A stretch of DNA of 64,000 bases, taken from Schmidtea nova. Lineage: Eukaryota. The notes under the pieces are model-generated. The model was not told where the DNA came from, made no database searches, and saw only the letters and a program-made list of their open reading frames with translations. Made by a program: the position numbers and the translations under genes. Shown here piece after piece: positions 36,068 through 55,411 of this stretch (the stretch's first letter is position 1; each line of letters begins with the position of its first letter). Location of the stretch: contig CM097883.1 of the NCBI GenBank assembly GCA_044892505.1, forward strand, positions 334,614,001 through 334,678,000. The letters are read 5' to 3'.

Positions 36068-36418
36068 CTATACATCCTCAGTTGAATCTGGCTCTGGATA
36101 CACGTCTATCTCATTTACAATCCAGCTCGTCCAACTATCCGGTATCTCTTCCTCTTCATGTCTCGTTAATCGGTCAATTTCCTCTGCTTGCCAGTTGTTT
36201 ACTTCATTTAATGTTCGATTCTCGTTCTGTAATTCGTTTATCTGTAGTTGTTGGATCTCGATTTTGTTCATTGCTTCGAAGTTACAGTTATAACTCTCGG
36301 TTAATAATTGCGTTTTGGCCGTCAACTGGCTCTGTAATTCATTTACTGTTCTGGCTAGCAGGTCACATTGTACTTTCCATCTTGTCATCATCGACATCTC
36401 TGTATTTTCTTGATTCAT
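36068..36418 (-). CDS. 116-aa short coiled-coil protein
   Basis: ATG-to-stop ORF co-oriented between pol and TRAF with short spacers. Confidence 0.65.
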   Translation of the reverse strand: MNQENTEMSMMTRWKVQCDLLARTVNELQSQLTAKTQLLTESYNCNFEAMNKIEIQQLQINELQNENRTLNEVNNWQAEEIDRLTRHEEEEIPDSWTSWIVNEIDVYPEPDSTEDV

Positions 36419-36541
36419 CGTTTTCCTAGATTATATACATCATTCTCTTTTTTCTGGTTTTATGTTTAATAATATTTATACCCATACGTATACGGTTATG
36501 CATTGGTTTTTACACTATTATTTACACTCATATTCCACCCT

Positions 36542-39500
36542 CTATACAATCACCACTGGTTTTCCTTCGTACAGTTCTTCGTCCTCGATCTGTACCCACA
36601 TCTCTTCGTGTTTTGATCGTCTTTTCAGTTCTTCTCGTACTGCTTTTGGTAGTTTTATGTTGTAGTTTGTGACCTTTACGTCCGGCCATTTTACTGCTAT
36701 GGTCTTATTCCTCATGCCATATCTCCAACAGACTATCATGATCGTTATCAGTGGTATACACCCTATGAATACCCCCATGCTGATTAATCCCATTATTGTT
36801 TTTCCAATGTTCATCTTCGGAGTTTCACTTTGGTTTATCATCACGCCATATTGACCTTTCCATTCCGCTTCCCATTGTTCGTATTGTTGTTGTCTCCGTC
36901 TGACTTCTTCGATCACTTTCTCTGGTTCCCATCTTTCTTGGCGGTTTGGTATTGTTTCTTCCGTCTCGGTTTGTTCTCTCTTCACACTCAATTCTCGGAA
37001 TTCTAACTTTCTGATTCTCCTCGTTATCGTTGTGTTCCTTGGCGTGTAATAGGTGTCGCACCTTTCCTGTGGATTTCCTTGTGCGTCCACTTCTTCGATT
37101 GCACACACTTCGTATTCTGCGTTTGTTTTCAACTTCCTCATTTCTACCTCGATTATTTCTCCTTTATCATTTGATGTCTTTTGACAGTTTCGTGGGGACT
37201 TTCCCATACTGTTTGGCATTAATGTCCAACAGATTTCTAGGACCTTTTTATGGATCTTCCATATTATCAGAGTCGTTGATTCTGGTTCGTTTTCTATTGT
37301 CGTCCCTTCTGTTGTTGTCTGTTGAACTCTCTGACTGTTGGTTGTCGTGGTCCTTCTTGACTTTCTTTTCCTCTGTCGACTTCCTCCCATTTCAATCGTT
37401 CTCGTACCGTTAATTTGCTCTGGCGTCTTGTACAGTTTGCACTCCAGGCTTCTTTGTATTATTTCTCTTATTCTTCGGATTACGCAAATTTCGTAGGCTT
37501 GTCCGACTTCGAATCCATTTAGTTGAAACGGGATTCCTCGTTCTCTCGTTTTGCATTGCGGTAGTACGTGACTGGTCGATGCTCCGATGTATTTTCTCCA
37601 ACACATCCCAATTGTTCTCCGACCAATGTTTTTTATCTCTACGGTTACTACTTCATTCGCAATCGTTTCTTGATCTTGTTTCTTTCTTTTTGGGAATTCA
37701 ATTATCTCCTTTGCTTGGAACACTTTACACTCGCTTGTGCCTGGTCTGTTTCCGTTTGCTGCTTTTTCCATGAGGCATAGTTCACATGTTTTCTCTGTTT
37801 CCATTTCAGTTATCTCGATTTCCTCGTTTGTCTCTGCCTCTCGACTTTCTCTTGTTTCGCTGATTCCAATTACTTCATTGTTTCGTCCCCAACATCTTCC
37901 ATTCGTTGTTCGTTGGTCTTGGACATTTACTAACGTCATCACGCTGATATCTATGTCTTCCATGATTCTCTTAATGAGGATTAATATTAATGCTACACAT
38001 ATCAATTCTGGTTGGAATGTTAATTTTCTCGCTGGATTTTTGGTTATTCTTTCTTTCTCTGTTCGGTTTCTGATTCCTTCTTCTGCTTCGGTTTGATTCT
38101 TCCCTTTCTCTGATTCCACTTCTGTTCTTCCCGTTGTCTCTTCGCTTCTTTTCCCAATCCATTTCTGTATTTTCAGCGCTTCTGTTGCTTTATATAATTG
38201 ACATGCAGTTACTTGAGGTGCTTTTGGTTCTCCTCTCTGCTTTATTGCGCATATTATGTATGACTTTTCTTTCTCCAACCCTTTGATTGGGATGACGTCT
38301 CGCTTCAAATCTGACAATATACACTTCAGCGTATCGTTTTTCCTCAGGTTTTCTTTCCAGCATATTCTTTCGTATACTTCGTTTCCTCTGATTATTTCCA
38401 GCGTGACGTATTGTTTCTTGGCTTCTCCTTGTCCGATGATTGTTATCAATATCGCAATACACAACATTTCTGGTCTCAAAAGTAGACTTCCTGTTCGTTT
38501 TCCATAGTTCGTACTTTCGTCTTTTGTTCCACTGTTTTCTCGTTCTTCGGCTTCTTCTTTTTTGTCGTTTTTCGTTGGCTTCGGTTCTTCTTGTCTTTCT
38601 TTTTCATTATTCTCTGTTCTTTTGTTGTCATTGTCTTCGTTGTTCTTTTCGTTGTTACTTTTGTCGTTGAAGTCTCTGTAACCACCCCCTGGTCCTTTGA
38701 AAATGTCGTCCTCGACATTAATTTCTTCAATCAATCTTTCATACGCTTGGACCGCGAGTGTGCTAGACTCGAATTCCCGTATTTCCATGTCTTTTGATGG
38801 TTCTATGTCTTTTAGTCTACTTTGCTTGATCGCTTCTTTGGCATTTGCCCATTCATTCACATATTTTCTGAACAAGTCTTTCCATCTTCCCATTCGTTCC
38901 TGTTCCTTTGAGTTGTTCGTAAATTTCAAATCTCTTCTCTTCAAGAATTCTTCTACTATCTCTGGCTTTTTGTGTCTTAATAACGCGCTTCTGATACACC
39001 AATTCTGATTCTGTTCCATATGGTCATTGATCTTGAACACTGGTTCCTTGGTTATCGGATTCGCCCATGTTAGTAATGCTCTTGTTTTCTCTATGTCGTG
39101 TATCATTACTGTTAGACTGAAGTTCTTTACGTTATTCGCCAGGTATTCGATATCGTCTTGTTTCTTGATGGACTTTATGAACTTGATCATCTCGAAGTTG
39201 TTCCACTGTATTGCGATGTCTATGATGGAATTATTCTTTCCATTTTTCCCTTCGATTTTTGTTCCTGCTTCGTATAACTCGTTTAGCACTTTGCAGTTCG
39301 TCTTCTTCCTCGCTGCGATTATCATGATTGTATCTCCGTTATCATCAACCGTGTTCATGTCTGCTTCGCATTTGACCATCGCTTTCGTTATTTCCAGCAC
39401 TTCGTTTTCTTTCTTTCGACGTAATGCCCAGTGTATCGGCAATCTCCCATCCTTTGATAATAGGAATGCTACTGGCATTTGATTTTTGATCGTTTCTATG

Positions 39501-42500
39501 TCACTCTCGTTATAATCTCCTTGTGCGTATCTGTGTAATTTCTCTGTAATTGCTCCTAGTATCTCCAACGAGTTTTTATTCTCTTTGAATTCCGATAATC
39601 TTTCTTGCGCTTTTGCTACGATTGCGTCTAATCTCTCTTGATAATCGGCTTTTGCATTGAACAACACTGCTTTGCTTCTTATTTGCGTTTGCATCTGTTT
39701 CATTCGTTGGTCTTGATACACTGCTTGTCTGAAGAACTGTCCATATTTCAATGCTTCTATCAGCTCTTTATATCGCTTGCTTATTTCTTTGTGCTGCGTT
39801 TGGATGTCATAGAAATGTTCGAAGCTCATATCCGGATTCCATTGTTTATCACACCATCTCTTGATTAATCCGATTAATTCTTTTTTTCTGTCTTCCAACT
39901 TGTATTCTCTTGGGTTTTCGCTAACCCGTAACGTATCTCTCGCTATCAACACTGCAAGTGTTTTTGGATCGTATGTTACCTCTAGTAGATGTTTCAGTAA
40001 CGCATTTTCTCCCCTTGTGAATACTTCATTACAATCTATGACCCATGAATCTCTTTCTGGTCGTTTCCACTTTAACAGTATTCTCCAGGTTTTACTGTTT
40101 CTTACTCCGATTGCTTGTTTCATGATTGATCCTCTGGTTATTTCATCGATTTCCCACGTGGCATTTTCCGTGATATACTTCAGTATTCGGTGATTCGCTC
40201 TGTCAATTGCATGATTCAAGAATGTTCGTCCTTCTTTATCTTTTGTCATCCAACTTGATCTGGTGTTTCCGAATAGTTTGACTATTTCATCATCTCTTCC
40301 ATGAATCGTCATCATCATGAGTGGAGTGATTCCTTCCCAATTCACTTTGTCAATTTCTCCTCCACCTTCGAGTATCATCTCTACGATCTCTTTCACTTTT
40401 TCGTTTCCACTGTGCTTGATTGCATTGTGCAACGCTGTGTTACCGTCTTTGTCTTGTAGATTCAATGTTTGAGGGATTTCCTCTAGCAGCGTTCTTGTTA
40501 TTGGATGCGCTGATCTGTCTTTTGCATACTCCATTACATTTTTCCGCACTTCTGCCAATATATTGAAATCGAGCCACCATTTCCATTCTGGTATAAGTTC
40601 TCTGGTCTTCTTTGCCAGTTCTTTGATATCTATTGCTTCTCTTCGGTTGTCTTCTAGACTTGTTAGCGGCTTTTGTTGTACTCGCAACATACTGATTCTC
40701 GCCGTCTGTGATCTTGTCATCACCCGTTTCTCTGGTGATAGAGTTGCTGTCTTTGGTATTTTTCTGCATCTACATGCATTCACGTATATTGGTCTTACCA
40801 CTGGATTGTTCACCAATCGTACTCTCACATTATTTTCGTTTACTGTTGTTATTTCGTATGGCCCTTTGCCTGGTCGTTGGAGTTTCTTGACTGTACCGGG
40901 TATTATCTCTGGTGTCTCGATGATCACCCAATTTCCAACTTTTAAATCATGTGCTTTCACATTCTTTTTCTGATCATGTAGATCCTTGTAACTCTCTTGA
41001 TAGAACTTGATGTTCAGTTCCGCCGTTTTCCAGATTTCTTGCATTCTTTCTTTGAACTTCGTCACGTAATCGTCAACCTCCATGTACTGTGATAATGGTG
41101 GTTGATATTCTAAATCAATCGGTAAGTTGCAATCTCTTCCGTACATCAGTTGGAATGGACTTAGCTTTGTTGCCGCATGTATTGACATTCTATATGCCAT
41201 TAAACACAGGTTTATATATTCGTCCCAGTCAGTCTGATGTTTGCTGACGTAATTTGACAACATGCGTATTAGCGTTCCATTGAATCTTTCTGTTTGACCG
41301 TTCGTTTGTGGATGGTATGGGGATGTCCGTAATTTCGCAATTCGGAAGTAATTCGTAACTTCGTCCAATATTTCACTCATGAAATTTGTTCCTTGATCCG
41401 TTAGGATTTTCTTTGGTGTTCCGTATCTGCAGCATATCTCTTCCACCAATATTCTCGCGACTGTTTTCGCTTTTTGATCCGGTATTGCGAACGCTTCTGG
41501 GAACTTTGTTAGGTAGTCCGTGACTACTAATATGTACTGATTTCCTTTTAAACTTTCTGGCAATGGTCCAACTACATCCATTGCTATCGTCGCCATTGGT
41601 TCTGCAGGTATTGGCATAGGTTTTAGTGGTGTTTTCCACTTCGTTCCGACGTTCTTTCTTGTTGCACAGGTTAAGCAGTTCTTTATCCATTCTTTCACAT
41701 CATCTTCCATGGTTGGCCAAAAATACTTTTGTCTCAATCTCCCGATTGTCTTTTTCGCTGACATATGTCCGCCTAATTTTCCGTCATGATATTGAGTCAT
41801 GATTTCCTTTCGCCTATTCGCAGGTAAGCACATCAATCTTCGTTCTCCATCTTGTATCAATAACCATCCTTTTTCCATCACATATCTATGTTGATATTTC
41901 TGCATATGTTCGCGCAACGTTTGGTTCTTGCCGAATATTTCTATTTCCCTTTCTTTCAAATACTTGCTGATCAATCCCAACTCCTCGTCTTCGAGTTGAT
42001 CTTTCCTTAATTCGCTGAAATCCAAATCCTCCGCTATTAATGCACATATTTTCAGAGCGTTTAGGTTCACCAATTCTGGGAATGTAAATCTTGACATGCA
42101 ATCTGCGTTTGCATTTGCTTTTCCTGCTTTAAACTTTATGAATGGCGAGTATTCCTGTAACTGCATCGCCCAACGCATCAATCTACTTGACGATTCTTTA
42201 TGTTGGCCTAACCATACCAATGGTTGATGATCCGTCGTGATATATATTTCATGACCCCACAGTAGGTATTTGAAATGCTTGATTGCCAATATTATCGCAT
42301 AGGCTTCTCTTTCCGTGACTGAGTAATTCCTTTCATGTTTCCTGAATGTTCGACTGTAGTACCCAATTACTCTTTCCTTGCCTTCTTCATCGAATTGGCC
42401 TAGTACTGCTCCTGCTGCGTATCCACTTGCATCTGTTGCCAACAAAAATGGCTTCTTAAAATCTGGATGGACCAATATTGGTGCTGTAATCAGTTTGTCT

Positions 42501-45500
42501 CGTAATGTCTCAAATGCTGCTTGTTGTTCTTTTCCCCATATAAACGACACATCTTGTCTTACCAATTCTTGCATTGGCTTTGATATTCCTGCATAGTCCT
42601 TGATAAACTTTCGATAATATCCACACAATCCCAAAAATTCTTGTATTTGCGTCACTGTCTTTGGTGGTGGACATTCTTTGACTTTTTCGATATTCCTTGG
42701 ATCTGGTTCTTTTCCTTTTGCTGATACAATGTGACCTAAGAATGTCACTTTCTCTTTTGCCCAATCGCACTTTGACGGCTTCAATTTCAGTTTCCACTGT
42801 CTCAATTTCACGAACACATTTCTGATATCTTGCAGGTGATCTTCGAATGTTGCGGAGTAGATCAATAGATCGTCAATATACACCATGCATTGTTTTATGC
42901 CATGTGTTACGAAATTCATGCATCTCTGGAATGATGCTGGCGCGTTTGTTAACCCAAACGGCATTTTCTTGAATTGGTACAGATCTCGTCCGATTGTAAA
43001 TGCTGTCTTCTCTTTATCCTCGTCTTTCATTTTGATCTGCCAATATCCGCTTTTTAAATCCAGTGACGTGAAATAGGCTGCTCCTTGTAACGTCAACAAC
43101 ATTTCGTTTATGTCTGGCAGTGGGTACGTATCTCTTTTCGTAACTGCGTTCAACCGTCTGTAATCGATACAGAATCTCTGAGTTCCATCCTTCTTTTTCA
43201 CCATCACCACCGGGAATTGCCAGGGTGAGCAACTGGGTTCGATGACCTCTGCATCTAACATCTTTTGTACCTCTTCTTCTGCCACTGCTTTTTGAGCTTC
43301 TGCCAATTTATATGGTCGTAATGCGATTGGCGTTTCGTCCGTCAACGGTATCGTATGTAATGTTACATCACATGTTCCCAAATCCAAATCTGATGCTGCG
43401 AATATATCTTTATATTCCATCAACAGTTTCTGTAACTGTTCTTTTTGTCGTTCGTCTAACAACACACTGTCGATTTTCCATGGTGATTCGCCTTTGCTTT
43501 TCTCATTCTTGTCTGGTATTTCGATTTCGGACATGGGTGTTAATTTACCCAATCTCTCATTCTCGTATATTATCTTGTCCTCTTCGTCGAAATTTACCAT
43601 ATTAATTGGTATCTCACCTTCTTGGTTTATGGTGACCAGTTCTCTTGCCATTGGTAATTCTATCTTTGCTTCGAACTTTTTACTTGGTTCGAATATCATA
43701 TCCCCCTTTATTGTTGAATCGATCTTGACATAGCACATCATTTCGTGCCTCGCTGGTACTACTATTTGTTCTGCACTTGCCACTTTAACTTTCATTCTGC
43801 AAATTTTTCCTGTTCTATCTTTTAATTTCATTGCTCCTAGATCGATTACGATCTCCTTGAACAGGTCTGGCATCAGGTCAGTTCCAATAATACATGGTAC
43901 ACTCAGCGATGGTATTACAGCGATGTACGTGTTGATTTCTGCACCTCGATGCTTAATTTTTACAAACCATCTTCCGGCTACTTCTACTGTCTCCTGACTG
44001 CACGCGATTACATGTACGTTTGTCTTTTCTATTTCTCTTTGGTTTTTCTCTGGTATATAGTTGATGTCGATCGCCGAAATATTCGCGCCTGTATCGATCA
44101 TGGCTTCAATTTCTCTTCCGTTTATTTCTACGGCTGTTGTTAAAATCGGTCCCATATTTGTGGACATAACTGCTATCGTGTGCGTGTCTTCCAACGAGTC
44201 TACACTTCCACCTCGTTTTACTTTGCATCCTTCTGGAATTATCGGGTATATACTGGTCATCGGCATCATCTGCATCATATTCGGCTTCGCTTTGTATATC
44301 GGTTCGTTATACATTGACTGAGGTGGAGCGCTGTATCTCCAATTCTCAACTGCACTCTTTTCGTTATACTGTAGAATCTGGTTTATATTCGCTTGTCCTC
44401 CTTGATCGTCATCGTCATCCTCATTGCTTGAGTCATCCTGTGTTCGATATCCCCTCACTCTTTCCCATAATCCTTTCCTTTCTTTCTTTAGTTGTCGTCT
44501 TGCTTGCTCGTCTTGCATTATCTTTTTGAATTTCCTTCCAACATCTTCATTTGTTCCTTTCATTTTCGCAAGTATCTTCAACAATCTTTTTATTCGATGA
44601 ATGTCTTTTGAGTGTCCATGCAACACCATCGTTTTCGCAAGGAATGGTAAGAATCCTACTACCATTTTCCAATTCACTTTCTTTTCTCTCTTGTAGATGT
44701 CGAAACACGCTAACATTTGCGTTATTATCACTCTGACGATTTGTATTATCAATATAACACCCAGTATTTCAGCCATCATTTGTCCGAATATCAGGAATCT
44801 TCCCCACATTGCCTTCATCATATTTTCCGTGGCTTTCTTGAAATGTGCCGGTGACAACAGCAGTTCGTAATTCGGTCCTTCTCGATAATTCGTTCCTCCC
44901 GTTATCGTTACGATATTTGACAGTAATGCTTCTCTTCTTGCCGGGAATAATATATTCTGCCTTGCCGCTTCTAAATCTTTTGGACTATAGATTCCGTTGT
45001 TTGAGACATCTACGTCGCTGAACTGTCTATCTTTCGATAACTGCATCAGTTCAAATTCTCTTGGTGCTAATACTTCGGTTCTTCCTGGGAACATAACCCA
45101 TTTGCCATCTGGTTTCTGATAAAGCGGTCCGTACGCATTACTACAGTTGAACGGATTTGGTTCAAACCCTGGTGGATTGATGATTCTCGTCACCGGTTGA
45201 ACATATCGTACTTTTCCTTTGTAATCGATTTCTAGTTCGTTTGTACATTGTCCAGGTTTCAACTGCGTTGTTGCTGCTAGCGATGCGTGTGTCTTTTCGC
45301 AAATGTATACATACATTGCTTCTCCAACCACTCTTCCGAAATGTCCTTCTCTCAGTGGTAATAACGGCATCGCGCTATCTGGATTCGTAATCGCTACGGC
45401 CAACTTTGTCTTTAATATTTCCCGATTCAGTATACAATCGTTGTTTATCAGATCGTAGTACACTTTTTGCAATGAGGCTTGACCTCTATGGAATAAGAAA

Positions 45501-46774
45501 TCCATTTTATTATTCACATACAAGTGTAGCTTGATATCCATTGTGTCGATCTTGGGTTTCGCATTCGGTACTTCTTGCTTTGACTCATATATTCCTGGAT
45601 AGTTTGTTTCGTATACTGTTGTACTGCACTTAAGGGTTGCTTTCCCTTTTATGAATCTCATGCCCACATCCTGATTTGTGGTTATCAACACTGTTGGTGT
45701 GGTTCTCATCTCTATCCGTTTTTCTCTATGATCCGGTTTCAGTTGTCTTTTGTTCTCTAAAGCCTCTTTGAGATGTTTTGCTCTAGCTTTGTCGTCATCG
45801 TCCTCTTCTCGGAACGTTTTTCCTTGGATTTCGTCGAACTTTGCTCCTTGTAGTAGTTGTAATTGACATTCGTTCACTTTCGGTTTGTATACCAATGTTG
45901 ACATTCCCGTTTGACACATACTCCTGTCAATTTTACACATGGATAACGTTTTCATTTCTCCTGTGGTCGGTTCGAAGAATGCTTCGTAGCTTTTCAGTTC
46001 GACTATGTACGTATCCATTACCACTAAGTTGGTTGCAGGTACTCCGAATATTGGGTAGGTTTCTCCTTGACAATATCCTTCTCCTCCCGTAATCCGTCCT
46101 GCTACATAATACGTCTGCTGCAACATCATTCCTGGCTTTCCTTTTATCTTGATTTTATCTCTTGTTGTTACTTCTCCATGTTTAAATAATGCTTCGCAGT
46201 CTTCTCCTTGTAACACGATTGGTTCTCTTTCGGTTCCTGGCATGACAATTGCTGAATAATGTCCTCTCCCACAATAGAATGCGAATCTCGTCTTCTGCAC
46301 CTTGCATTCATTCACCATTGTCTTTATTAGTTCTGCCTCTTGATACACGTGGTACCATTGTTCCTTTTTAATCTCTCTCAATTCTACTGGGGTTGCATCT
46401 TTGCATTGCTCCGTACCTCTCAATGAATACTTTTCTCCCAATTTCATTTGATCACAATCAAATACTTCGAACGTTGTTACACCTTCTGTGCTTAACAACC
46501 ATACTAACATCATCATGATTATCGAGTTTAGATTCAACGTTGATCTTCCGTTTCCTTGCATCGTTTGTCTATTCTCCATTTCTCTCAATACTCCTTCAAG
46601 TTTCTTTCTCATCACGTTTGAACCCTCTTTTGTCTGGTTCTCTTTTATGAACTTTTCCCATCCTCCTTTTCTGAGGATATATGGTTCAATTTCCTTCTCG
46701 ATAATCATCGCCGTATTTTTAATATGTCTTCCCATCGGACTTGACTTCGGACTCCCTCGGCTTAGCGTTAGCAA
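36542..46774 (-). CDS. pol: 3410-codon polyprotein: Bcl-2-like tail / Env glycoprotein / PR / RT / RNase H / IN / ankyrin repeats / four Fn3-like modules / TM
   Basis: DTG at 44087-44095; YIDD at 42869-42880; TDASG RNase H; H..GH..C..C plus D,D,E integrase (MDVVG, TDQG, TERFN); DGNTALH and DGRLPIH ankyrins; first ATG at 46735, track start is TTG. Confidence 0.97.
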   Translation of the reverse strand: MLTLSRGSPKSSPMGRHIKNTAMIIEKEIEPYILRKGGWEKFIKENQTKEGSNVMRKKLEGVLREMENRQTMQGNGRSTLNLNSIIMMMLVWLLSTEGVTTFEVFDCDQMKLGEKYSLRGTEQCKDATPVELREIKKEQWYHVYQEAELIKTMVNECKVQKTRFAFYCGRGHYSAIVMPGTEREPIVLQGEDCEALFKHGEVTTRDKIKIKGKPGMMLQQTYYVAGRITGGEGYCQGETYPIFGVPATNLVVMDTYIVELKSYEAFFEPTTGEMKTLSMCKIDRSMCQTGMSTLVYKPKVNECQLQLLQGAKFDEIQGKTFREEDDDDKARAKHLKEALENKRQLKPDHREKRIEMRTTPTVLITTNQDVGMRFIKGKATLKCSTTVYETNYPGIYESKQEVPNAKPKIDTMDIKLHLYVNNKMDFLFHRGQASLQKVYYDLINNDCILNREILKTKLAVAITNPDSAMPLLPLREGHFGRVVGEAMYVYICEKTHASLAATTQLKPGQCTNELEIDYKGKVRYVQPVTRIINPPGFEPNPFNCSNAYGPLYQKPDGKWVMFPGRTEVLAPREFELMQLSKDRQFSDVDVSNNGIYSPKDLEAARQNILFPARREALLSNIVTITGGTNYREGPNYELLLSPAHFKKATENMMKAMWGRFLIFGQMMAEILGVILIIQIVRVIITQMLACFDIYKREKKVNWKMVVGFLPFLAKTMVLHGHSKDIHRIKRLLKILAKMKGTNEDVGRKFKKIMQDEQARRQLKKERKGLWERVRGYRTQDDSSNEDDDDDQGGQANINQILQYNEKSAVENWRYSAPPQSMYNEPIYKAKPNMMQMMPMTSIYPIIPEGCKVKRGGSVDSLEDTHTIAVMSTNMGPILTTAVEINGREIEAMIDTGANISAIDINYIPEKNQREIEKTNVHVIACSQETVEVAGRWFVKIKHRGAEINTYIAVIPSLSVPCIIGTDLMPDLFKEIVIDLGAMKLKDRTGKICRMKVKVASAEQIVVPARHEMMCYVKIDSTIKGDMIFEPSKKFEAKIELPMARELVTINQEGEIPINMVNFDEEDKIIYENERLGKLTPMSEIEIPDKNEKSKGESPWKIDSVLLDERQKEQLQKLLMEYKDIFAASDLDLGTCDVTLHTIPLTDETPIALRPYKLAEAQKAVAEEEVQKMLDAEVIEPSCSPWQFPVVMVKKKDGTQRFCIDYRRLNAVTKRDTYPLPDINEMLLTLQGAAYFTSLDLKSGYWQIKMKDEDKEKTAFTIGRDLYQFKKMPFGLTNAPASFQRCMNFVTHGIKQCMVYIDDLLIYSATFEDHLQDIRNVFVKLRQWKLKLKPSKCDWAKEKVTFLGHIVSAKGKEPDPRNIEKVKECPPPKTVTQIQEFLGLCGYYRKFIKDYAGISKPMQELVRQDVSFIWGKEQQAAFETLRDKLITAPILVHPDFKKPFLLATDASGYAAGAVLGQFDEEGKERVIGYYSRTFRKHERNYSVTEREAYAIILAIKHFKYLLWGHEIYITTDHQPLVWLGQHKESSSRLMRWAMQLQEYSPFIKFKAGKANANADCMSRFTFPELVNLNALKICALIAEDLDFSELRKDQLEDEELGLISKYLKEREIEIFGKNQTLREHMQKYQHRYVMEKGWLLIQDGERRLMCLPANRRKEIMTQYHDGKLGGHMSAKKTIGRLRQKYFWPTMEDDVKEWIKNCLTCATRKNVGTKWKTPLKPMPIPAEPMATIAMDVVGPLPESLKGNQYILVVTDYLTKFPEAFAIPDQKAKTVARILVEEICCRYGTPKKILTDQGTNFMSEILDEVTNYFRIAKLRTSPYHPQTNGQTERFNGTLIRMLSNYVSKHQTDWDEYINLCLMAYRMSIHAATKLSPFQLMYGRDCNLPIDLEYQPPLSQYMEVDDYVTKFKERMQEIWKTAELNIKFYQESYKDLHDQKKNVKAHDLKVGNWVIIETPEIIPGTVKKLQRPGKGPYEITTVNENNVRVRLVNNPVVRPIYVNACRCRKIPKTATLSPEKRVMTRSQTARISMLRVQQKPLTSLEDNRREAIDIKELAKKTRELIPEWKWWLDFNILAEVRKNVMEYAKDRSAHPITRTLLEEIPQTLNLQDKDGNTALHNAIKHSGNEKVKEIVEMILEGGGEIDKVNWEGITPLMMMTIHGRDDEIVKLFGNTRSSWMTKDKEGRTFLNHAIDRANHRILKYITENATWEIDEITRGSIMKQAIGVRNSKTWRILLKWKRPERDSWVIDCNEVFTRGENALLKHLLEVTYDPKTLAVLIARDTLRVSENPREYKLEDRKKELIGLIKRWCDKQWNPDMSFEHFYDIQTQHKEISKRYKELIEALKYGQFFRQAVYQDQRMKQMQTQIRSKAVLFNAKADYQERLDAIVAKAQERLSEFKENKNSLEILGAITEKLHRYAQGDYNESDIETIKNQMPVAFLLSKDGRLPIHWALRRKKENEVLEITKAMVKCEADMNTVDDNGDTIMIIAARKKTNCKVLNELYEAGTKIEGKNGKNNSIIDIAIQWNNFEMIKFIKSIKKQDDIEYLANNVKNFSLTVMIHDIEKTRALLTWANPITKEPVFKINDHMEQNQNWCIRSALLRHKKPEIVEEFLKRRDLKFTNNSKEQERMGRWKDLFRKYVNEWANAKEAIKQSRLKDIEPSKDMEIREFESSTLAVQAYERLIEEINVEDDIFKGPGGGYRDFNDKSNNEKNNEDNDNKRTENNEKERQEEPKPTKNDKKEEAEERENSGTKDESTNYGKRTGSLLLRPEMLCIAILITIIGQGEAKKQYVTLEIIRGNEVYERICWKENLRKNDTLKCILSDLKRDVIPIKGLEKEKSYIICAIKQRGEPKAPQVTACQLYKATEALKIQKWIGKRSEETTGRTEVESEKGKNQTEAEEGIRNRTEKERITKNPARKLTFQPELICVALILILIKRIMEDIDISVMTLVNVQDQRTTNGRCWGRNNEVIGISETRESREAETNEEIEITEMETEKTCELCLMEKAANGNRPGTSECKVFQAKEIIEFPKRKKQDQETIANEVVTVEIKNIGRRTIGMCWRKYIGASTSHVLPQCKTRERGIPFQLNGFEVGQAYEICVIRRIREIIQRSLECKLYKTPEQINGTRTIEMGGSRQRKRKSRRTTTTNSQRVQQTTTEGTTIENEPESTTLIIWKIHKKVLEICWTLMPNSMGKSPRNCQKTSNDKGEIIEVEMRKLKTNAEYEVCAIEEVDAQGNPQERCDTYYTPRNTTITRRIRKLEFRELSVKREQTETEETIPNRQERWEPEKVIEEVRRRQQQYEQWEAEWKGQYGVMINQSETPKMNIGKTIMGLISMGVFIGCIPLITIMIVCWRYGMRNKTIAVKWPDVKVTNYNIKLPKAVREELKRRSKHEEMWVQIEDEELYEGKPVVIV
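44600..46525 (-). other. env: Env-like glycoprotein region within the polyprotein (chuvirus G / class III gB-like)
   Basis: Signal-like SIIMMMLVWLLSTEG then FEVFDC..YSL..C, FYCGRGHYS, CILNREIL, GEAMYVYIC, CTNELEI..QPVTRII, CS..YGPLY..W and a TM at about 44720-44800; Cys pattern recalled from chuvirus-type glycoproteins. Confidence 0.78.
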
Positions 46775-47195
46775 ATTGTATATCGTATACGAGATTGCTA
46801 CCAGATATTTGCTGTCCGTCTGCTCCGTTAAGTAGTCTTTTTATTAACATCGTGGTTCCTTGCCAATCCAGATGATTCGATTTTGTTTTGGCTTTTATCA
46901 ATTCTGGCATAATCGGTGCTATTGCATTGTGTAGCATCCTTGCCTTTGTACTAGGTTCGTTTATCCTCCACAAATTCTTTAATTCCGGGTCGATTATCGC
47001 CAACACATCCATTATCGTTTTGGTGAGCCATTCTTCTCCTTGACAGACTTGATTCTCCTCTTTTCCTCTGATTTCTGCGATTTTATCCAGTTTCTTCAAG
47101 CAAATCTCCCATTGCTCTTGTCTCCTTTCTTCCCTTGTCTTTGGGATTGTTGTTGCTGGATCTATCTTTGGTCTTCCTCTTGGTCGTTTCTCCAT
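46719..47195 (-). CDS. 158-aa ORF with AT-hook (KRPRGRPK) and N-terminal half of a Bcl-2-like domain; +1 shift joins it to the polyprotein
   Basis: Overlaps the polyprotein frame; removing one A from the A5 run (plus strand T 46838-46842) fuses the two. Confidence 0.6.
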   Translation of the reverse strand: MEKRPRGRPKIDPATTIPKTREERRQEQWEICLKKLDKIAEIRGKEENQVCQGEEWLTKTIMDVLAIIDPELKNLWRINEPSTKARMLHNAIAPIMPELIKAKTKSNHLDWQGTTMLIKRLLNGADGQQISGSNLVYDIQFANAKPRESEVKSDGKTY

Positions 47196-47256
47196 TCCAG
47201 TTCCGGTTTCTACAAATCTCGTTGCTCTTCCTGTTTCTTCTGTAACATCTCTTCCT

Positions 47257-48459
47257 TTATTTCGCTCGTTGTTCTAACCATCTTTCCATTTCTTGGGTAA
47301 ACTGTGGTTGTTCTTGCTCATCTTCCGAATCGTTCACCATTTCTATGACTACCTCCTGTTCCACTCCTTGATCGTCGATTTCTGCTGGTGACGTTATTGG
47401 CATCTCTATTATTCTGTCAAAAATATTCGCCGTTGGTTTTTGAGTCAACTTCGTTAATTCTTCTATCGCTTCGTCACTGTCTGTTAATATCTCATCCACA
47501 TCATACGCTTCTGGCGGTGTTCTCTCTCTCGTTTTGATTGGTGTTGTCCTTGCTTGTCCCGAACTTGTTCCTGGGGTCATTGTTGACTTCATCGGACTTG
47601 GTGTACTCATGCTTCCTTTCGTTTTCTTTTCCTCTTTAAACTTCAGTGGTTGACCCACTATTTGTGCCACTGTTAACGTATTCATTAGATCCAATTGCAC
47701 TGGTGTCAGCCAGATTTCCAAATTATTATCCAACGATCGTCCTTGATGTTGCAGGTGGAATGGTAGTTCGTACATCAGTTTCTCTTTAATACTTTTCACT
47801 TTCTCTGTTAGCATCACCCAAAACTCTTCTTTTCTTTGATTCGGATACATTATCCTCAAATGTATTTTCTGTGGCGTTTCCTCCGTGAATTCTCTGTTTC
47901 TCCACTTTTTTATTACATCGTCTAGTTGCTCTGGACACCACTCATTAACTCTCTTGTATTCTGCTATCGCTTTGGCTACTTTTCTCAAGTTCGTTATGTC
48001 TTCTCCATTTGAGATTATGAATTGTGCTAAGCCTTTTATTGTTTGTCTTTTTCCCCGAGTATTTCCTCTCAACAGCTCGATCAATTCACTCGTTTTCTGT
48101 TTCTCCAATTCTGCCCATATTACTGCAGTTTCTGGTCCGTCTAAGTCCGTTGGTAGTAACCTCCTTGTTACCATACATATCCGTTTCGTATTCGGTTCAT
48201 ATCTGTCTTCTCCTTCTGGATCTTCTTCATACACGCCTCTTTTCACTTTCCAACATTTCTCTTTGTTATCCCATTGTTTTTCTACTGGCGTCAGTCGTCG
48301 TCTGTTAAGATCCAATTCTCCCAATATGGTCTCCCATTCTGGCTTCATCTGCCAGTTCCGATAGATTTCTACTATCTGTCTCAACTTGCGCATAACGTCC
48401 TCTTGTCGTTGCTTTCTCCCTTCTTCATCTCTTGGTGTTGTTCTTTGCACATCATCCAT
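47257..48459 (-). CDS. 400-aa ORF containing a ubiquitin/SUMO-like domain and an S/T/P-rich tail
   Basis: KIHLRIMYPNQRKEEFWV..KVKSIKEKL..LQHQGRSLDNN..TLTVAQIVG at about 47654-47869; in frame with the upstream ORF across one TAA. Confidence 0.7.
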   Translation of the reverse strand: MDDVQRTTPRDEEGRKQRQEDVMRKLRQIVEIYRNWQMKPEWETILGELDLNRRRLTPVEKQWDNKEKCWKVKRGVYEEDPEGEDRYEPNTKRICMVTRRLLPTDLDGPETAVIWAELEKQKTSELIELLRGNTRGKRQTIKGLAQFIISNGEDITNLRKVAKAIAEYKRVNEWCPEQLDDVIKKWRNREFTEETPQKIHLRIMYPNQRKEEFWVMLTEKVKSIKEKLMYELPFHLQHQGRSLDNNLEIWLTPVQLDLMNTLTVAQIVGQPLKFKEEKKTKGSMSTPSPMKSTMTPGTSSGQARTTPIKTRERTPPEAYDVDEILTDSDEAIEELTKLTQKPTANIFDRIIEMPITSPAEIDDQGVEQEVVIEMVNDSEDEQEQPQFTQEMERWLEQRAK

Positions 48460-48525
48460 TCTGATGACATGTATTGTCTGATAATTATCCCATATGCCGA
48501 TTTTATACGCTCGTCTTTTGTCACG

Positions 48526-49275
48526 TTAATTCAGTAGATGTTCTTTGTATTTTATAGCGATGTCATCCTCGAATTCATCTTCCCGTTCTCGTTGTAATAT
48601 CGTCTCATTGATGACATCTACTATTTCTCCCACTTTACTATCTGGTATTACCTCAATTTGTCTTGTCTCTTCGTTCGGTAATCTCACAGTAATCTTCAGA
48701 TCTGATACCTCTCCTCGTTTAAACATTTCTTTTCCCATCTTTGCAATTAGCTTGTCCGTTTTGAAATTCGAATGCCTCGTTTGACTTGTATCTCGTATGT
48801 TCTCGATACACTGTTTCAAATTCTCATACTCGCTTTTCGTCAATTCCTTTCGATGTTTCTTGATTTGTTGGATGATCTGTTCTATCATCGTATTCAAATT
48901 CTCTGCTAAGATTCTTTCCTTTGCCTCTAGCAACTGAGGTTTTATTCTCATCTCATAACACGTATTCGCTTCTTTGACGATTCCTTGTAAGTTCTCTTCC
49001 TTCTTGGTGTTGCATATAGATAACGTTGTTATTTCTCCTGGCCAGATGCCTGTATCTATCATATGCGTTCTTTTTCTTACCAATCCGTTTTCTGAGTATA
49101 TGAATTTGTCTTTGTACGAGCTTCCCAATCTGTCCTCAACCCATCGATATATTCCATCCGTCATTGGGTTCTTTATCCAGATTCTCGGTGAACACTCGTT
49201 TATCCATATTTGTATTACGTATTCGTTCAGTGGTTCTTTCAATAACTTCTCTATGAACTCTTGTATTACTCTCAC
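48526..49275 (-). CDS. 249-codon ORF after gag; ubiquitin-like domain runs across its stop codon
   Basis: LKITVRLPNEETRQIEVIPDSKVGEI..IKYKEHLLN*RDKRRAYKIGIWDNYQTIHVIR; GTG start overlaps the gag TGA. Confidence 0.65.
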   Translation of the reverse strand: MRVIQEFIEKLLKEPLNEYVIQIWINECSPRIWIKNPMTDGIYRWVEDRLGSSYKDKFIYSENGLVRKRTHMIDTGIWPGEITTLSICNTKKEENLQGIVKEANTCYEMRIKPQLLEAKERILAENLNTMIEQIIQQIKKHRKELTKSEYENLKQCIENIRDTSQTRHSNFKTDKLIAKMGKEMFKRGEVSDLKITVRLPNEETRQIEVIPDSKVGEIVDVINETILQREREDEFEDDIAIKYKEHLLN

Positions 49276-51704
49276 TTCTCTTTCTTGTAACCCTCTTTAT
49301 ACTTCATTTGCCATACTGCTCGTATAAACTTTCGGTATCGTTTCTTGTCGATAAACTCTTCGTTGTGGATTACTTCTAACGCGTTATCCATCAGCTTCTG
49401 AATTTCGTCTTCCCTTACTGACACTGTTTCTATTGTCTCGACTACTTCCATCTTTTTATCCTCGTTTTCCGGTTCCTTTAGCATGTCTCCTGCCAGACTG
49501 CTAACTTCGCTGTCGTCTTCTTCATCTGACAACTCTTGTCTTGGGTGTCTCAGCATCCCAATATGTGCGATTGGTCTCGCTTCGTTTTTGCTAACTTCCT
49601 GTATTAGTTCATTCTCGTTTCCCGTTATTTCAGCTTTTCCCATTCTTTTCTCCAATTCGTCTATTTCTTCCAACCGTCTTCGTCTTATTTTTCCCTTGAA
49701 TATTCGACTGATCCGAGTTTGATGTTTCACTGGTGGTGGGATTTTCTCCGGTTCCACCTCTCTGATGATCATCACGTTTATTTTCGTCTCTGTTACTCCC
49801 ATATCTTCCCATATATCAGTCATCTTTAACTTCACTTCCGGTAAATCTTCTGTTTGTAGGAATGCTTCTCTGGGCAGTTTCGTTACTCCCGGAATCATCT
49901 CATTTACTTTATTGAACAATCTTCCCACTTCTTCTTTTACATCGTATTTGAATCGCCACACGTGATCATTCGGCATGATCACCAACATTCCTCTTTGTTT
50001 GATTCTCACTTCCTCTTCTTGATTCGTTTCTTTTTCTATTTCTTTTTCTGTTTCTGTTTCTTTTTCTACTTCTTCCACTTTTTGATTCTGCTCTGCGGCT
50101 TCTACTTCCTGATTCACTTCTTCTTGTTTCTGCTCTTCGTTTCTTTTCTCTTTAATTTCTAACTCGTCTGACTCATCCTGCTGCTTCTCTTCCATCATTG
50201 CTCGCATCATGTTGATCCTTGGATTTCCCTTTTTTAACTGTTGTAATCGTTGTTGCCTGACTTGTTCTTCTTCTCGTCGTACTCTAGTCCATTCTTGATT
50301 ATGTTTCTGTTGGCTTTCTCTATTTTCTCTTTCGGCCTCAGCTTCTATTAGCTGGATCATGTTTATCTTTGGTTGAGCAGCTTGCTGGCTTCCCTTTGCC
50401 ATGCTTTCGATTATCTCGTGTAATCTGGATACTTCCTGTCTCAACTTGGCTTCTTTTATACTGGCTTCATTTGCACTGCCATTTGGGTTGTTCCGTTGTT
50501 GACCCTGATTCCCATAGCTTGGTCGATTTCCGTAATTCTGTCTATTTCCACTGTTTGACCAACTTCTCTGTTGATTACAGTCTCTTGACATGTGTCCGGT
50601 TTTTCCACATGTGTAACACGTTTTCCCATAACATCGATTTTCTGAGTGACCCTTTTGTCCACACAGTTTGCAGGCTACATTCTGAAAACAATCTTGTTGC
50701 CAATGTCCGTTTTTCCCACACGTCTGACATTGCCTATTCTGCCTGTCATTGTAACTATTTCCTCCATTCGTGTTTACTGTGATATATCCGTTATTCTTCC
50801 TCGCTGGCGGTTCTTTGAACAATCTCTGCGAATGGGGAATACTTTGATTCATGTTTCTTTTTCCTTGTTCTTCGTCTTCTGTCGTTTTTCCCATTACCGC
50901 CGTAATTCTCATGTCATTCATTGCCATATGCAATTCGAATAGGTTGGCTGCTTCCAACGCTTCATCTACTGTTTTACATCCTTTGCATCCCACTTGTGCT
51001 CTGATGTCAGGTCTCCTGAGACCTCGTACGAATAACGCTGTCATCAATTCTTCGTCTACTGGGCTTCCTCTATTGAATGCCAGTTTCGCCAACTTTCTTA
51101 ATTCACTTGCGTACACCGCATTTGACTCATTTCTCCTCTGTTTTCTTGCTGAGAACTCATCGAATGCTTCATTCAGCACTTTGTTTATCCCAAACGTCTG
51201 TTGGAAGAACTCCTTGATCGCTTCCCACGTTCTGGGTGGACTACTTCCAGATCTCTTTTCGATATACAGGTCCAATGCGCTATCTTTCAAGTATAGCGGG
51301 ATTCGATTTGCCAACGTTTCTGCACTCCATCCGCATATATCTACGAATATGCCAAATTCCTTCAGAAACGTGTCCAATCTACTGGCGTCTCCATTGAATG
51401 GTTCGCCCTTGAATTTTACTCTTAGATCCTCTCTGTGGTCACTCATCCCGATTCCACTGTCTTGGAATACTGTACTAGTTTTCTTTGCTTCTGTTTCACC
51501 ACTTGTTTCTGGATTCAACTCCTCTTCTTCACTACTCTCTGTTTCGTTATCTCTTGACTCGCTTCTTGTTCTGTTTTCACTGACTAGTTCACTGTCAATC
51601 GTTTCTACTTCGTTTCGTACTTCTGGATCCTCTGGGGTTTCTTCTTGATTCTCTTTATTACTCGAATTGTCGCTGATTTCTGCTTGTTTGTTCTTTTGTT
51701 GCAC
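49272..51704 (-). CDS. gag: Gag with capsid domain, three CCHC zinc knuckles and long acidic C-terminal extension
   Basis: PFNGD..FL..F..W..LKDSAL..W..F..RKQ..ES..Y..L..FVRGL; CQTCGKNGHWQQDC, CKLCGQKGHSENRC, CYTCGKTGHMSRDC; first ATG at 51446; frame stays open upstream to an in-frame TGA at 51894-51896. Confidence 0.95.
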   Translation of the reverse strand: MQQKNKQAEISDNSSNKENQEETPEDPEVRNEVETIDSELVSENRTRSESRDNETESSEEEELNPETSGETEAKKTSTVFQDSGIGMSDHREDLRVKFKGEPFNGDASRLDTFLKEFGIFVDICGWSAETLANRIPLYLKDSALDLYIEKRSGSSPPRTWEAIKEFFQQTFGINKVLNEAFDEFSARKQRRNESNAVYASELRKLAKLAFNRGSPVDEELMTALFVRGLRRPDIRAQVGCKGCKTVDEALEAANLFELHMAMNDMRITAVMGKTTEDEEQGKRNMNQSIPHSQRLFKEPPARKNNGYITVNTNGGNSYNDRQNRQCQTCGKNGHWQQDCFQNVACKLCGQKGHSENRCYGKTCYTCGKTGHMSRDCNQQRSWSNSGNRQNYGNRPSYGNQGQQRNNPNGSANEASIKEAKLRQEVSRLHEIIESMAKGSQQAAQPKINMIQLIEAEAERENRESQQKHNQEWTRVRREEEQVRQQRLQQLKKGNPRINMMRAMMEEKQQDESDELEIKEKRNEEQKQEEVNQEVEAAEQNQKVEEVEKETETEKEIEKETNQEEEVRIKQRGMLVIMPNDHVWRFKYDVKEEVGRLFNKVNEMIPGVTKLPREAFLQTEDLPEVKLKMTDIWEDMGVTETKINVMIIREVEPEKIPPPVKHQTRISRIFKGKIRRRRLEEIDELEKRMGKAEITGNENELIQEVSKNEARPIAHIGMLRHPRQELSDEEDDSEVSSLAGDMLKEPENEDKKMEVVETIETVSVREDEIQKLMDNALEVIHNEEFIDKKRYRKFIRAVWQMKYKEGYKKEK

Positions 51705-52408
51705 TGTTTTACTTCCTGGTCTTGTCCTCTTCGCTGTTTTTCTTTCTTCTTCTGTTAGGATAGGTTCTGTATCGACCTTTTGTTGCGCTAATTTAGCTGC
51801 TGCTTTTGCCTTTTTTGTTGCTTTTCTTTCTGCTTCTGTTAGGATTGGTATTGTACCTGCCCTTGTTTCGCGTTCCGCAATTTTGTCTATTCCTCAACTT
51901 CTTATATTCTCAACTGATTTTCTACTTCGCTTTTGCTTTGCTTCTTCTTTGATTTGTTTCCTTGGAATTGCTCTGACTGCTAGATTGCTTTGAATTGCTT
52001 GATTGATTTGTTTCCTTAAAACAAATAATCACTTACACGATACGTCCCCGTTATCGTGTTTCTCGTCCCTCTCACGGGTGTAGTCATAATTCATGAAGAT
52101 CCCCATTTTTCCCATTTCCCTTGATTTTAAGTCTATTTAAATTATCTATGCAGTCGTATCAATTATCTATTCTTTATCAAATACACCAATTACTTTTCCC
52201 CAGTTTCCCAATTACTTTGTCGCTCAGCGCTCTTATTATCCCCTTTACTTTTCTCAGGCTTCTCTGGCTCTGAGTTCAAATTTCCCCTTATCTGCCGACT
52301 ACTCTGTTTCTCAACTATTCGCTTTATTTCTTATTCACACTGCGTTTACTACTTCATTTCGATTCTCATCTCTACTCATCTTTAATTCTACTGACATTTC
52401 TCGTTGGC

Positions 52409-52867
52409 CTGCTGGGTTTTCCAGTCAGCGCTTTTAATCTCACCTTTTATCTCGAGCTCTGTTCTCTCAACTTCACTCATTATCTCATTAGCCTGCTGGG
52501 TTTTCCAGTCAGCGCTTTTAATCTCACCTTTTACTGTTATCTCGTTATTCTCGACCACGACTGTCGTTTCATTAGCCTGCTGGGTTTTCCAGTCAGCGCT
52601 TTATTACTCTCCATTTATCTCTTTACTATCGACTTTTAACTGCTCTTTATTTCGATGATCATCGCCTTTGACCTGCTGGGTTATCCAGTCAGCGTCCTCA
52701 GTTTCACCACTTTGTTATTACTCACTTTTATTCTCTCGATCTTTCCTGATCGTTATCATTGACCTGCTGGGTTTTCCAGACAGCGTCTTTACCACTTTAC
52801 TGTCTTAACAAACCGGTTTCATTTTATTCCCATCGAATCTCATGGTCTGCTGGGTTTTCCAGTCAGC
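52409..52867 (-). promoter_or_regulatory. Array of six conserved 21-nt hairpins in the 5' leader
   Basis: ctgctgggttttccagtcagc at 52409, 52493, 52577, 52673, 52764, 52847; spacing 83-96 nt. Confidence 0.75.
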
Positions 52868-53195
52868 ACCCTTCACTTACTCACTTTACTTTACTACTCC
52901 TCTGTATGCATACTTTATCGTCGTTAGGCCACATAATCAGCTTTACTCGCATTTATCAATACCCAGGTGCGCACCTTCAACTCTCTCGTTATTAATTCGG
53001 TTTCTTTCAACCCTTATTCCTCATTATTCGCTATTCATTTTCACTATTCATCATTTATCCTCATTATCACTTATTCATCTCCATTATCGCTTATTGATCT
53101 TCACTATCCGGATAGTTTTATACTTTATTTAGTCCTCATCTGCCTCACTTCGTCGTCTTTCTCGTGGGCTTTTTACTCACTATCTTATTTCAAAC

Positions 53196-54428: not shown

Positions 54429-54887
54429 TTACAAGTACACTGTTATTTTCTCGGATACGGGAAGGTTGCACATAGGACATCGTTCATTTATTTTACATTC
54501 ATTACAGAATCGAAAATGCCCACACGGCAACAACATTATCTGTATCTTATTCATTTCACAGATATAACACGTCAGATATTGTCTCGTATGTTCGGTTGTT
54601 AGTCTTATCCATTCATCGTGTTTTGTTGTTAACTGTTGCTCTAGCCTGTGGCATTCGATATTCATTTCAGGGTTGTTTAATCTTTCTCTGTACCATTGAT
54701 ATCGTGTTGCGGTATCCACTGGGTTCTTATTCTCGCTTATGCTCATTATCATTTCGGCTCTTTCTGTGTTGTTTGTCGGCTCGTGATATCCTCCTACCTC
54801 GAGTCGTTTTAGCTTTCTCATTATTATCTCCGTTGTCTCGTTGTTTGTTTCGAAAAACGTTTGCATTTCTTTTATTTTGTTCTCCAT
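54429..54887 (-). CDS. 152-aa protein with C-terminal IAP-type C3HC4 RING, in the 5' leader
   Basis: CxxC..PCGH..CxxC..CPxC at the extreme C-terminus; no BIR motif seen. Confidence 0.88.
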   Translation of the reverse strand: MENKIKEMQTFFETNNETTEIIMRKLKRLEVGGYHEPTNNTERAEMIMSISENKNPVDTATRYQWYRERLNNPEMNIECHRLEQQLTTKHDEWIRLTTEHTRQYLTCYICEMNKIQIMLLPCGHFRFCNECKINERCPMCNLPVSEKITVYL

Positions 54888-55411
54888 CCCCTGAATGAAT
54901 TCTCATTAATTTTGTTATCGATTTTTATTTATTTATTTATCATTCCTATTCTATGGTAGCCCTACTGTTCGGTTTTTGCTGTTCTATTTCGCGCCACTGC
55001 GTATCCCCCCGTGTTCTTGAATGTCGCCCCGACATGATCATTGTTAGTTGCTCACACTCATACCATTTTCATGCACACTTTTCAGCATACTTTTACCTTA
55101 CGTCATGCATACTTTTCCTCACTCTCATGCTGTTACTCCACATACTATTCATCATACTTCATTTATCCACATATTTTCACATTCACACTTTCATTCTCAT
55201 GCATACTTTTATCATGCTCATCATTTACTTATTTCACACTCATACTTTTATTTATTATTTTCCAACCCGATTCATTCTTGCTTCAGGACCCTCAAACCCT
55301 CTGTTATTCTTTACTTTACTTTTCCTCGCTAAATTCAATTCATCCCGGTTCATGCGCTCTAAGACTATCCGCCGATATCGAATTCACTTTTTCCCACAAA
55401 GATCGATTTAA

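Follow-up and report, generated by a model that had tools for sequence, protein, structure and literature searches.

A predicted class III fusogen encoded in frame upstream of pol in a giant Burro-like Ty3/gypsy element of Schmidtea nova

We analysed a 64,000-nucleotide stretch of Schmidtea nova DNA (GenBank assembly GCA_044892505.1, contig CM097883.1, positions 334,614,001 to 334,678,000; hereafter the window) and found that an envelope (env) coding region on its minus strand lies in frame before pol and shares its ancestry with related env-pol elements. Profile comparison and structure modelling show that the encoded protein is a class III fusogen, with the fold of herpesvirus glycoprotein B (gB), of the chuvirus/xinmovirus glycoprotein family, whose fusion activity itself is predicted. 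We consider it highly probable that this region encodes the env of a giant, Burro-like Ty3/gypsy element ordered gag-env-pol and acting by the mechanism proposed below. Env of this kind is known, and its value here lies in confirmation: a 2019 review (PMC6431247) did not settle to which fusogen class the Burro env belongs, and the structure test made here shows that this Burro-like env is of class III. What may prove important is the element as a whole, a young 29-kb insertion with an intact env-pol and with apoptosis and signalling modules as in a complex virus. The combination of a class III env with a Burro-type giant element has already been described; this copy adds a predicted second surface protein, the role of which seems to be unstudied.

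Results

Env is encoded in frame with pol

The env interval, positions 44600-46525 of the minus strand, sits within a single open reading frame (ORF) of 3432 codons (36542-46840), upstream of and in frame with protease, reverse transcriptase (RT), RNase H and integrase, rather than forming a stand-alone env. It covers about amino acids (aa) 106-747 of the ORF, from the signal peptide to beyond the membrane anchor, and comprises the following parts.

46475..46531, minus strand: env signal peptide, about aa 104-122 (hydropathy peak; same position in relatives; cleavage site predicted)
44846..46474, minus strand: class III fusogen ectodomain, gB-like, chuvirus/xinmovirus family (Pfam, profile, model and structure matches; cysteine conservation)
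44621..44821, minus strand: membrane-proximal and transmembrane region, hydrophobic core 44723-44779 (hydropathy; long model helix; kept in relatives)

Hydropathy peaks at aa 106-124 (signal) and aa 688-706 (anchor), both of which are kept in relatives, and the anchor probably crosses the membrane once. The ectodomain contains 14 cysteines, one N-glycosylation sequon and a furin-like REKR site at aa 372-375. Among the 15-16 close relatives that cover each column, none lacks any of the 14 cysteines, and at columns covered by all 99 more distant proteins at least 92 of these carry the residue. The REKR site is not conserved and is private to this copy, being found in none of 16 close relatives and in one of the 99 others.

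A preliminary description, made from the letters of the sequence, had read a series of five motifs here as those of a viral envelope protein. All five are indeed present, on the minus strand and within the 3432-codon ORF: FDC..YSL..C at aa 127-146 (nucleotide (nt) 46462), YCGRGH at aa 189-194 (nt 46276), CILNR at aa 469-473 (nt 45436), GEAMYVYIC at aa 506-514 (nt 45325) and CTNEL..PVTRI at aa 532-553 (nt 45247). Pattern versions of the motifs, written post hoc with the env sequence already seen, occurred jointly in 0 of 20,000 shuffles. Singly, in the order listed, their shuffle rates were 0.0004, 0.002, 0.29, 0.03 and 0.00005, and C-x-L-x-R alone is uninformative because it is found in 29% of shuffles.

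Env belongs to a viral glycoprotein family with a class III fold

Env matched the Pfam family Monjiviricetes_fusion (PF24664) with an expectation value (E) of 6e-71 and 239.7 bits, against a curated cut-off of 27. A scan of 1.84 billion representatives for homologues yielded 897 proteins at E 0.001 or better, the best 150 of which were taken. A word-indexed search with env alone as query yielded nothing among 5647 candidates, the relatives being long polyproteins; a further search gave 5 of 5555. Searching the PDB with the single env sequence gave no fusogen match. With a profile of 123 sequences, kept from 132 initially aligned and also used for folding, herpesvirus gB was the best PDB match (E 8e-4) and accounted for 39 of 43 rows.

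The AlphaFold model of env aa 121-745 (mean predicted local distance difference test score (pLDDT) 86.8) shows a gB-type multi-domain fold with a long central helix at residues 318-365. In a Foldseek search of the PDB, gB filled all 37 listed rows, with a best E of 2e-13. VIA-align gave gB in 49 of 50 rows (Z 10.8, root-mean-square deviation (rmsd) 7.6 Å, 398 residues aligned), the remaining one being the Dhori virus glycoprotein. Hairpin turns at aa 190-196 and 262-267 bear hydrophobic residues and are putative fusion loops. Chuvirus glycoproteins too are reported to match class III fusogens (bioRxiv 10.64898/2026.08.30.748148). The best BFVD rows (E 8e-38 to 3e-30) came from chu-like, qin-related and xinmo-like viruses, whose glycoproteins are 15-20% identical to env. 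The initial proposal of a chuvirus-type, gB-like class III envelope is therefore borne out as to class and family and not as to Chuviridae specifically, qin-related and xinmo-like glycoproteins matching alike.

The env lineage is old and probably of other origin than the BEL/Pao env

The nearest envs, 35-40% identical, lie in retroelement polyproteins, and stand-alone glycoproteins reach 15-28% identity. An env tree was built from 116 of 155 sequences, 39 having been dropped for covering fewer than 430 profile positions or spanning 800 residues or more; it is unrooted. One branch of this tree, with a Shimodaira-Hasegawa-like approximate likelihood-ratio test (SH-aLRT) support of 99, separates the window and 16 relatives from the rest of the 116 rows. 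Protease or pol follows env in the same ORF in 14 of these 16 relatives (one by a weak match), and pol similarity was seen in one of the 99 rows outside the clade. RT and env identities over nine elements gave a Spearman correlation of 0.78 (Mantel p 0.003). The RT of the window is 45-56% identical to those of these relatives, so its element is a distinct branch.

The row P0068, which we take to be BEL/Pao from its DUF5641 mark, lies deep among the stand-alone glycoproteins, far from the env-pol clade, and an approximately unbiased (AU) test on 48 rows rejected a forced union of the two (p-AU 7e-6). This result supports, on thin sampling of sequences, a capture of env separate from that in mosquito BEL/Pao elements. 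The phylogeny thus sets an env-pol clade apart from the single BEL/Pao-marked row, with RT and env trees that disagree on the window. An independent capture by a Gypsy lineage, as first suggested, accordingly is supported in its separation from BEL/Pao and fails as a new or recent event. The capture is old and already known, because env is common to the gag-env-pol clade, diverges together with RT, and has been published in Burro (PMC6431247) and across animals (PMC13524379).

Two observations concern the relatives themselves. Several relatives, namely P0001, P0006-P0009, P0013 and P0018, carry two or more aspartic-protease-like domains, some of them behind the integrase. P0005, labelled a protein of a bacterial metagenome-assembled genome, is probably mis-binned eukaryotic DNA.

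The carrier is a Ty3/gypsy element

As the preliminary description had recognised, the carrier is a Gypsy element: it is Ty3/gypsy (Metaviridae-like) in its protease-RT-RNase H-integrase order, Ty3-like RT, long terminal repeats (LTRs), primer-binding site (PBS) and target-site duplication. The best PDB match of its RT-RNase H is Ty3 RT (4ol8, E 2e-85). The element measures 29,313 bp in total, with an internal part of 22,933 bp, or 31,514 bp including a tandem remnant.

55436..58625, minus strand: 5' LTR, 3190 bp, TG...CA (repeat and boundary analysis)
55412..55429, minus strand: tRNA-Pro-like PBS, 18 nt, 6 nt past the LTR end (11 of 12 nt equal to the tRNA-Pro PBS in supplementary file 1 of PMC13524379)
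43865..44134, minus strand: aspartic protease (DTGA), in frame behind env (Pfam RVP E 8e-9)
42149..43201, minus strand: RT (YIDD) and RNase H (Pfam RVT_1 E 2e-36, RT_RNaseH E 2e-38)
40751..41824, minus strand: integrase with HHCC, D-D35-E and GPY motif (Pfam and motif inspection)
29313..32502, minus strand: 3' LTR, 3190 bp (4 differences from the 5' LTR)
27112..29312, minus strand: tandem remnant, consisting of PBS and 1849 bp of leader, then the final 352 bp of an LTR (repeat analysis)
27108..27111, plus strand: target-site duplication TTCA, 4 bp (partner 58626-58629; encloses element and remnant)

We regard the insertion as young, with its env-pol intact. The four differences between the LTRs are confined to their initial 1.3 kb, the last 1.9 kb having none, a distribution that fits the origin proposed below for the remnant. 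Each LTR contains two ORFs of 209 and 265 codons (55822-56451 and 56574-57371 in the 5' LTR; spanning 29699-31248, minus strand, in the 3' LTR), neither with a Pfam match. The remnant at 27112-29312 probably arose by unequal crossing-over followed by deletion, an assembly error being possible as well. A 5040-bp repeat was considered as the LTR and dropped, because the TG...CA ends, PBS and target duplication agree with an LTR of 3190 bp and a leader present in duplicate.

The 5' leader contains a six-copy hairpin array, which could be a packaging or dimerisation signal.

52399..52887, minus strand: six-copy hairpin array (6 of 6 copies predicted to form the same hairpin, z -1.5 to -2.9)

In its outer stem both sides change and pairing is kept. 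The leader also carries a 19-bp tandem array of 10 copies and related 35-37-bp repeats, at 53194-53383 and 53490-53717. Within the 64-kb window nothing matched Rfam, and ARAGORN found zero tRNAs.

Gag is parted from env-pol by four breaks

51893 is the upstream limit of the Gag ORF, which is followed by a spacer reaching to the env-pol ORF.

49272..51893, minus strand: Gag ORF, 873 codons, three CCHC knuckles, first Met near 51446 (Pfam zf-CCHC E 1e-10)
46841..49296, minus strand: gag-env spacer in ORFs of 256, 422 and 184 codons (ORF list, relatives)

The three knuckles were read off the translation, and Gag is similar to the Gag regions of six relatives (P0001-P0004, P0012, P0021), in all of which gag and env share one ORF. 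Here the spacer is interrupted four times, by frame changes near 49290, 47265 and 46845 and by an in-frame stop at 48526-48528. These breaks are crowded into 2.4 kb out of 15.3 kb of coding sequence, a clustering with a chance of 0.014; env-pol (10.3 kb) and gag (2.6 kb) are open despite them. Programmed frameshifting is unsupported because no slippery heptamer was found at any gag-env junction. It is possible that the spacer encodes ubiquitin-like domains, to judge from weak matches (E 0.12-0.14) and a similarity to P0024 (E 4e-6); a profile made from the ubiquitin-like segments of two relatives did not match the window.

Accessory modules and a second predicted membrane protein

The element further encodes several modules outside gag, env and pol proper.

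54429..54902, minus strand: accessory ORF, 157 codons, C-terminal IAP-type RING finger (Pfam zf-C3HC4_3 E 3e-9)
46622..46822, minus strand: Bcl-2-like domain, BH1-BH2 half, immediately before the env signal peptide (profile of relatives)
39173..40474, minus strand: ankyrin repeats (Pfam Ank_2 E 3e-18)
36542..38491, minus strand: second predicted membrane protein, at the polyprotein end (hydropathy, repeats, model)
36068..36430, minus strand: small accessory ORF, 120 codons, coiled-coil-like (ORF list, Pfam scan)
34565..35977, minus strand: TRAF-like gene, full length in one ORF, with RING, TRAF zinc fingers and MATH (Pfam MATH_2 E 9e-27)
33315..34475, minus strand: long coiled-coil ORF (weak coiled-coil Pfam match, E 0.008)
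32719..33246, minus strand: small ORF shortly upstream of the 3' LTR, its product having a signal-like start, a coiled coil and a transmembrane segment (translation; weak Pfam matches)

The RING ORF lies between PBS and gag, and its best PDB matches are the RINGs of cIAP2, cIAP1, ML-IAP and XIAP (E 4e-6 to 2e-5); Pfam detected no BIR domain in the ORFs scanned, this one included. It is doubled via the tandem remnant, whose leader holds the second copy (28306-28779, minus strand), and both copies are open. The TRAF-like ORF matches TRAF5, TRAF3, TRAF1 and TRAF2 in the PDB (E 2e-27 to 4e-25) and is 24-30% identical to the animal TRAFs found. The coiled-coil ORF at 33315-34475 possibly corresponds to the 'Smc' motif reported for Burro.

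A profile of the Bcl-2-like domain, built from five relatives only, which were picked by a shared motif, detected aa 7-73 of the env-pol ORF at E 2e-8, the next best among 1060 window ORFs being at E 0.2. The six-sequence profile matches Bcl-xL (E 6e-6). The N-terminal half of the domain was searched for in the upstream ORF and not found.

In the second predicted membrane protein, the ankyrin repeats are followed by two signal-like segments, four cysteine-bearing repeats resembling fibronectin type III (FN3) domains (37043-38416), a transmembrane segment (36731-36787) and a short tail. When a single repeat was modelled (pLDDT 78), the top structural rows were FN3 domains, with a Z of about 8, which is middling on the structural aligner's own scale, and an rmsd of 2.5-3 Å over 71-74 of 81 residues. 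Foldseek gave no significant match (E 0.06 or weaker), and there was no PDB sequence match. Five of the six relatives that reach past the integrase show a signal, an FN3-type motif (C..L.P.T.Y-type) and an anchor there. The window repeats went undetected by a profile built from the FN3-like units of the relatives, and profile-profile comparison gave a probability of 1%; the relatives and the window share the post-integrase layout only, because their FN3-like units show no sequence match. A narrowly defined literature search found no FN3-type membrane protein reported for gypsy elements, though figures, supplements or further papers may show one, and section 7 of PMC6431247, on Burro, does not mention a post-integrase FN3-repeat membrane protein.

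Flanking DNA

The flanks are transposon-rich. They contain a DNA transposon encoding a hAT transposase with a BED finger, at 42% GC amid AT-rich sequence, a DDE_Tnp_1_7 fragment, presumably piggyBac-type, and FLYWCH/Mutator-like pieces (flank transposon sites 22628-24547, plus strand; 8666-9154 and 12651-14086, minus strand). Left of the insertion, 24946-26935 (minus strand) holds broken ORFs that by eye resemble a Polinton-type DNA polymerase region, with weak Pfam support (endonuclease VII, E 0.004). No host gene was recognised among the 11 flank ORFs scanned. The GC content of the flanks is 32% and 21%; planarian genomes are more than 70% AT (PMC11410931), and the AT-rich, transposon-dense flanks are compatible with such a genome.

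Discussion

Proposed mechanism and competing explanations

In the mechanism that we propose, an internal signal peptide would direct the env ectodomain into the endoplasmic reticulum and the anchor would stop transfer. The protease-RT-RNase H-integrase-ankyrin part would remain on the cytosolic side, attached to the tail of env, until cleavage by the element's protease sets it free, and this attachment would deliver pol to the site of particle budding. The FN3-repeat membrane protein would be made separately, by means of a second internal signal. Enveloped particles would carry trimers of env that fuse with the membranes of target cells, the element spreading most likely between cells of one animal, and the Bcl-2-like, IAP-RING, TRAF and ankyrin modules may damp apoptosis and innate signalling. 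A single ancient acquisition from a virus of this family with a negative-strand RNA genome would have supplied env, apart from the mosquito BEL/Pao capture. Because the four breaks cut gag off, translation of env-pol in this copy would have to begin independently, from the Met at 46735 or one within the signal peptide, or the copy would rely on intact siblings.

Several points weigh against the reading of the region as the env of a Burro-like gag-env-pol element with a class III fusogen. Whole-chain TM-scores between env and gB are just 0.33-0.41 in all listed Foldseek rows but one, and the predicted membrane topology of env is based on hydropathy and one model. The env-pol clade was picked in part from top search matches. 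The correlation between RT and env identities depends heavily on a single deep split and a single pair of nearly identical elements. The RT and env trees, which share their deepest split, place the window differently, with weak support in RT. Only one row is demonstrably BEL/Pao, and its union with the env-pol clade was tested after the first tree had been seen. No canonical polypurine tract precedes the 3' LTR (32503-32560, minus strand), where short palindromes are found instead. The link to Burro is drawn from architecture. The single giant Gag-Env-Pol ORF of Burro1 (about 5000 aa) was not found here, which may be specific to this copy, and the BIR and dUTPase-like domains of Burro had no Pfam match in the ORFs scanned, the published dUTPase call coming from HHpred.

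The strongest competing explanation, to which we give somewhat less than an even chance, is that this copy is defective or mis-assembled: decay or sequence errors would account for the four breaks, and the element would function as a single Gag-Env-Pol polyprotein. The uninterrupted gag and env of the six relatives are consistent with this view, as are a break that cuts the Bcl-2-like domain, the assembly gaps in the window, the rearranged 3' end of the element and the decayed Burro copies with stops and frameshifts known from Dugesia japonica (PMC6431247). However, the confinement of the breaks to the spacer, together with the open gag and env-pol, suggests selection keeping gag and env-pol as separate units.

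It is rather unlikely that env no longer yields infectious particles and that the element persists by intracellular retrotransposition or, through its anti-apoptotic modules, as a tolerated partner, with env serving cell-cell contact, interference or nothing. Such a role would fit the IAP-type RING, Bcl-2-like domain and TRAF of this element. It would also fit the anti-apoptotic Burro1, said to protect planarian stem cells via an IAP-like region (cited second-hand in PMC13465017), and the statement that the transmission of most such elements is unknown (PMC13524379). However, relatives just 27-40% identical to this env retain its 14 cysteines, its anchor and the two hairpins taken as putative fusion loops, a sign that selection has acted to keep the fold of the fusogen.

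More doubtful still is a further proposal, that the lineage is a complex infectious enveloped metavirus in which gag is uncoupled from env-pol and which has two surface proteins, the pre-pol fusogen and a post-integrase FN3-repeat type I protein acting as attachment partner or TRAF-wired immune decoy. The layout of signal, FN3-type motif and anchor recurs in five of the six relatives with sequence past integrase. If the FN3 protein indeed partners the fusogen, it would bear on how gB-type envs mediate entry without herpesvirus-type helper glycoproteins, an open point in PMC13524379.

It is very improbable that a chuvirus glycoprotein was captured recently and specifically in the lineage of this Gypsy element. 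The intact env, the young insertion and the chu-like virus glycoproteins among the best structural matches would be in favour of such a capture, but it is largely refuted by the closer identity of env to env-pol retroelement envs than to stand-alone glycoproteins and by the single clade of env-pol envs, which tracks RT and has an arrangement already published. Least credible of all is a second-hand origin from a BEL/Pao (Anakin-type) element, for which the shared Pfam family and the arthropod chuvirus-type envs adjoining both Pao and gypsy pol genes could be cited, and which the deep position of P0068 and the rejected union contradict.

Comparison with known systems

Planarian Burro/GYPSM1 elements exceed 30 kb, with an internal region of up to 25 kb, and carry Gag CCHC knuckles and ubiquitin-like, BCL2, MATH/TRAF, BIR, ankyrin and Smc motifs; their env lies in frame between BCL2 and protease and matches mononegavirus fusion glycoproteins (PMC6431247). 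Burro1 expression upon PIWI loss is described in PMC8532177. The element studied here is similar in its size of about 30 kb, in the three knuckles of Gag and in the in-frame order of Bcl-2-like domain (here the BH1-BH2 half), env and protease. It also shares an env akin to fusion glycoproteins of negative-strand RNA viruses, ankyrin repeats, TRAF/MATH, a long coiled coil and an IAP-type RING. It differs in that gag and env-pol are parted by four breaks, in its TRAF, which is a separate full-length ORF downstream of pol rather than an ORF1 domain or an upstream ORF, and in the predicted FN3-repeat membrane protein behind integrase. The ubiquitin/SUMO-like domain before BCL2 and the Smc-like coiled coil of Burro have weak matches only. 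Because the single giant ORF is absent and the comparison with Burro is one of architecture, we place the element among GAG-ENV-POL gB-type gypsy elements, functioning in the manner of Burro, and do not file it as a Burro member.

Env proteins of gB type occur in gypsy elements across animals, with the GAG-ENV-POL order in nematodes, bryozoans and flatworms, and have been argued to be ancient (PMC13524379). As in these errantiviruses, the element has a Ty3/gypsy pol, a gB-type env with predicted signal peptide and anchor placed before pol, LTRs, a tRNA primer site and a cysteine frame kept at low identity. Its gag, env and pol are open and in that order, the breaks being confined to the gag-env spacer. 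Among the flatworm, bryozoan and nematode regions of that source, those compared span 11-18 kb, whereas the present element reaches 29 kb and carries many accessory genes.

Anakin elements of mosquitoes are BEL/Pao elements with a chuvirus glycoprotein (bioRxiv 10.1101/2020.02.15.950899), and thus likewise hold this glycoprotein family in an LTR element. They belong to another retrotransposon superfamily than the present element with its Ty3-like RT, the env of which falls in a clade separate from P0068. With the chuvirus, xinmovirus and qin-related glycoproteins and herpesvirus gB, finally, env shares its cysteine frame and predicted fold; it differs in its low identity, 10-14% in the case of gB, and in being made within a retroelement polyprotein.

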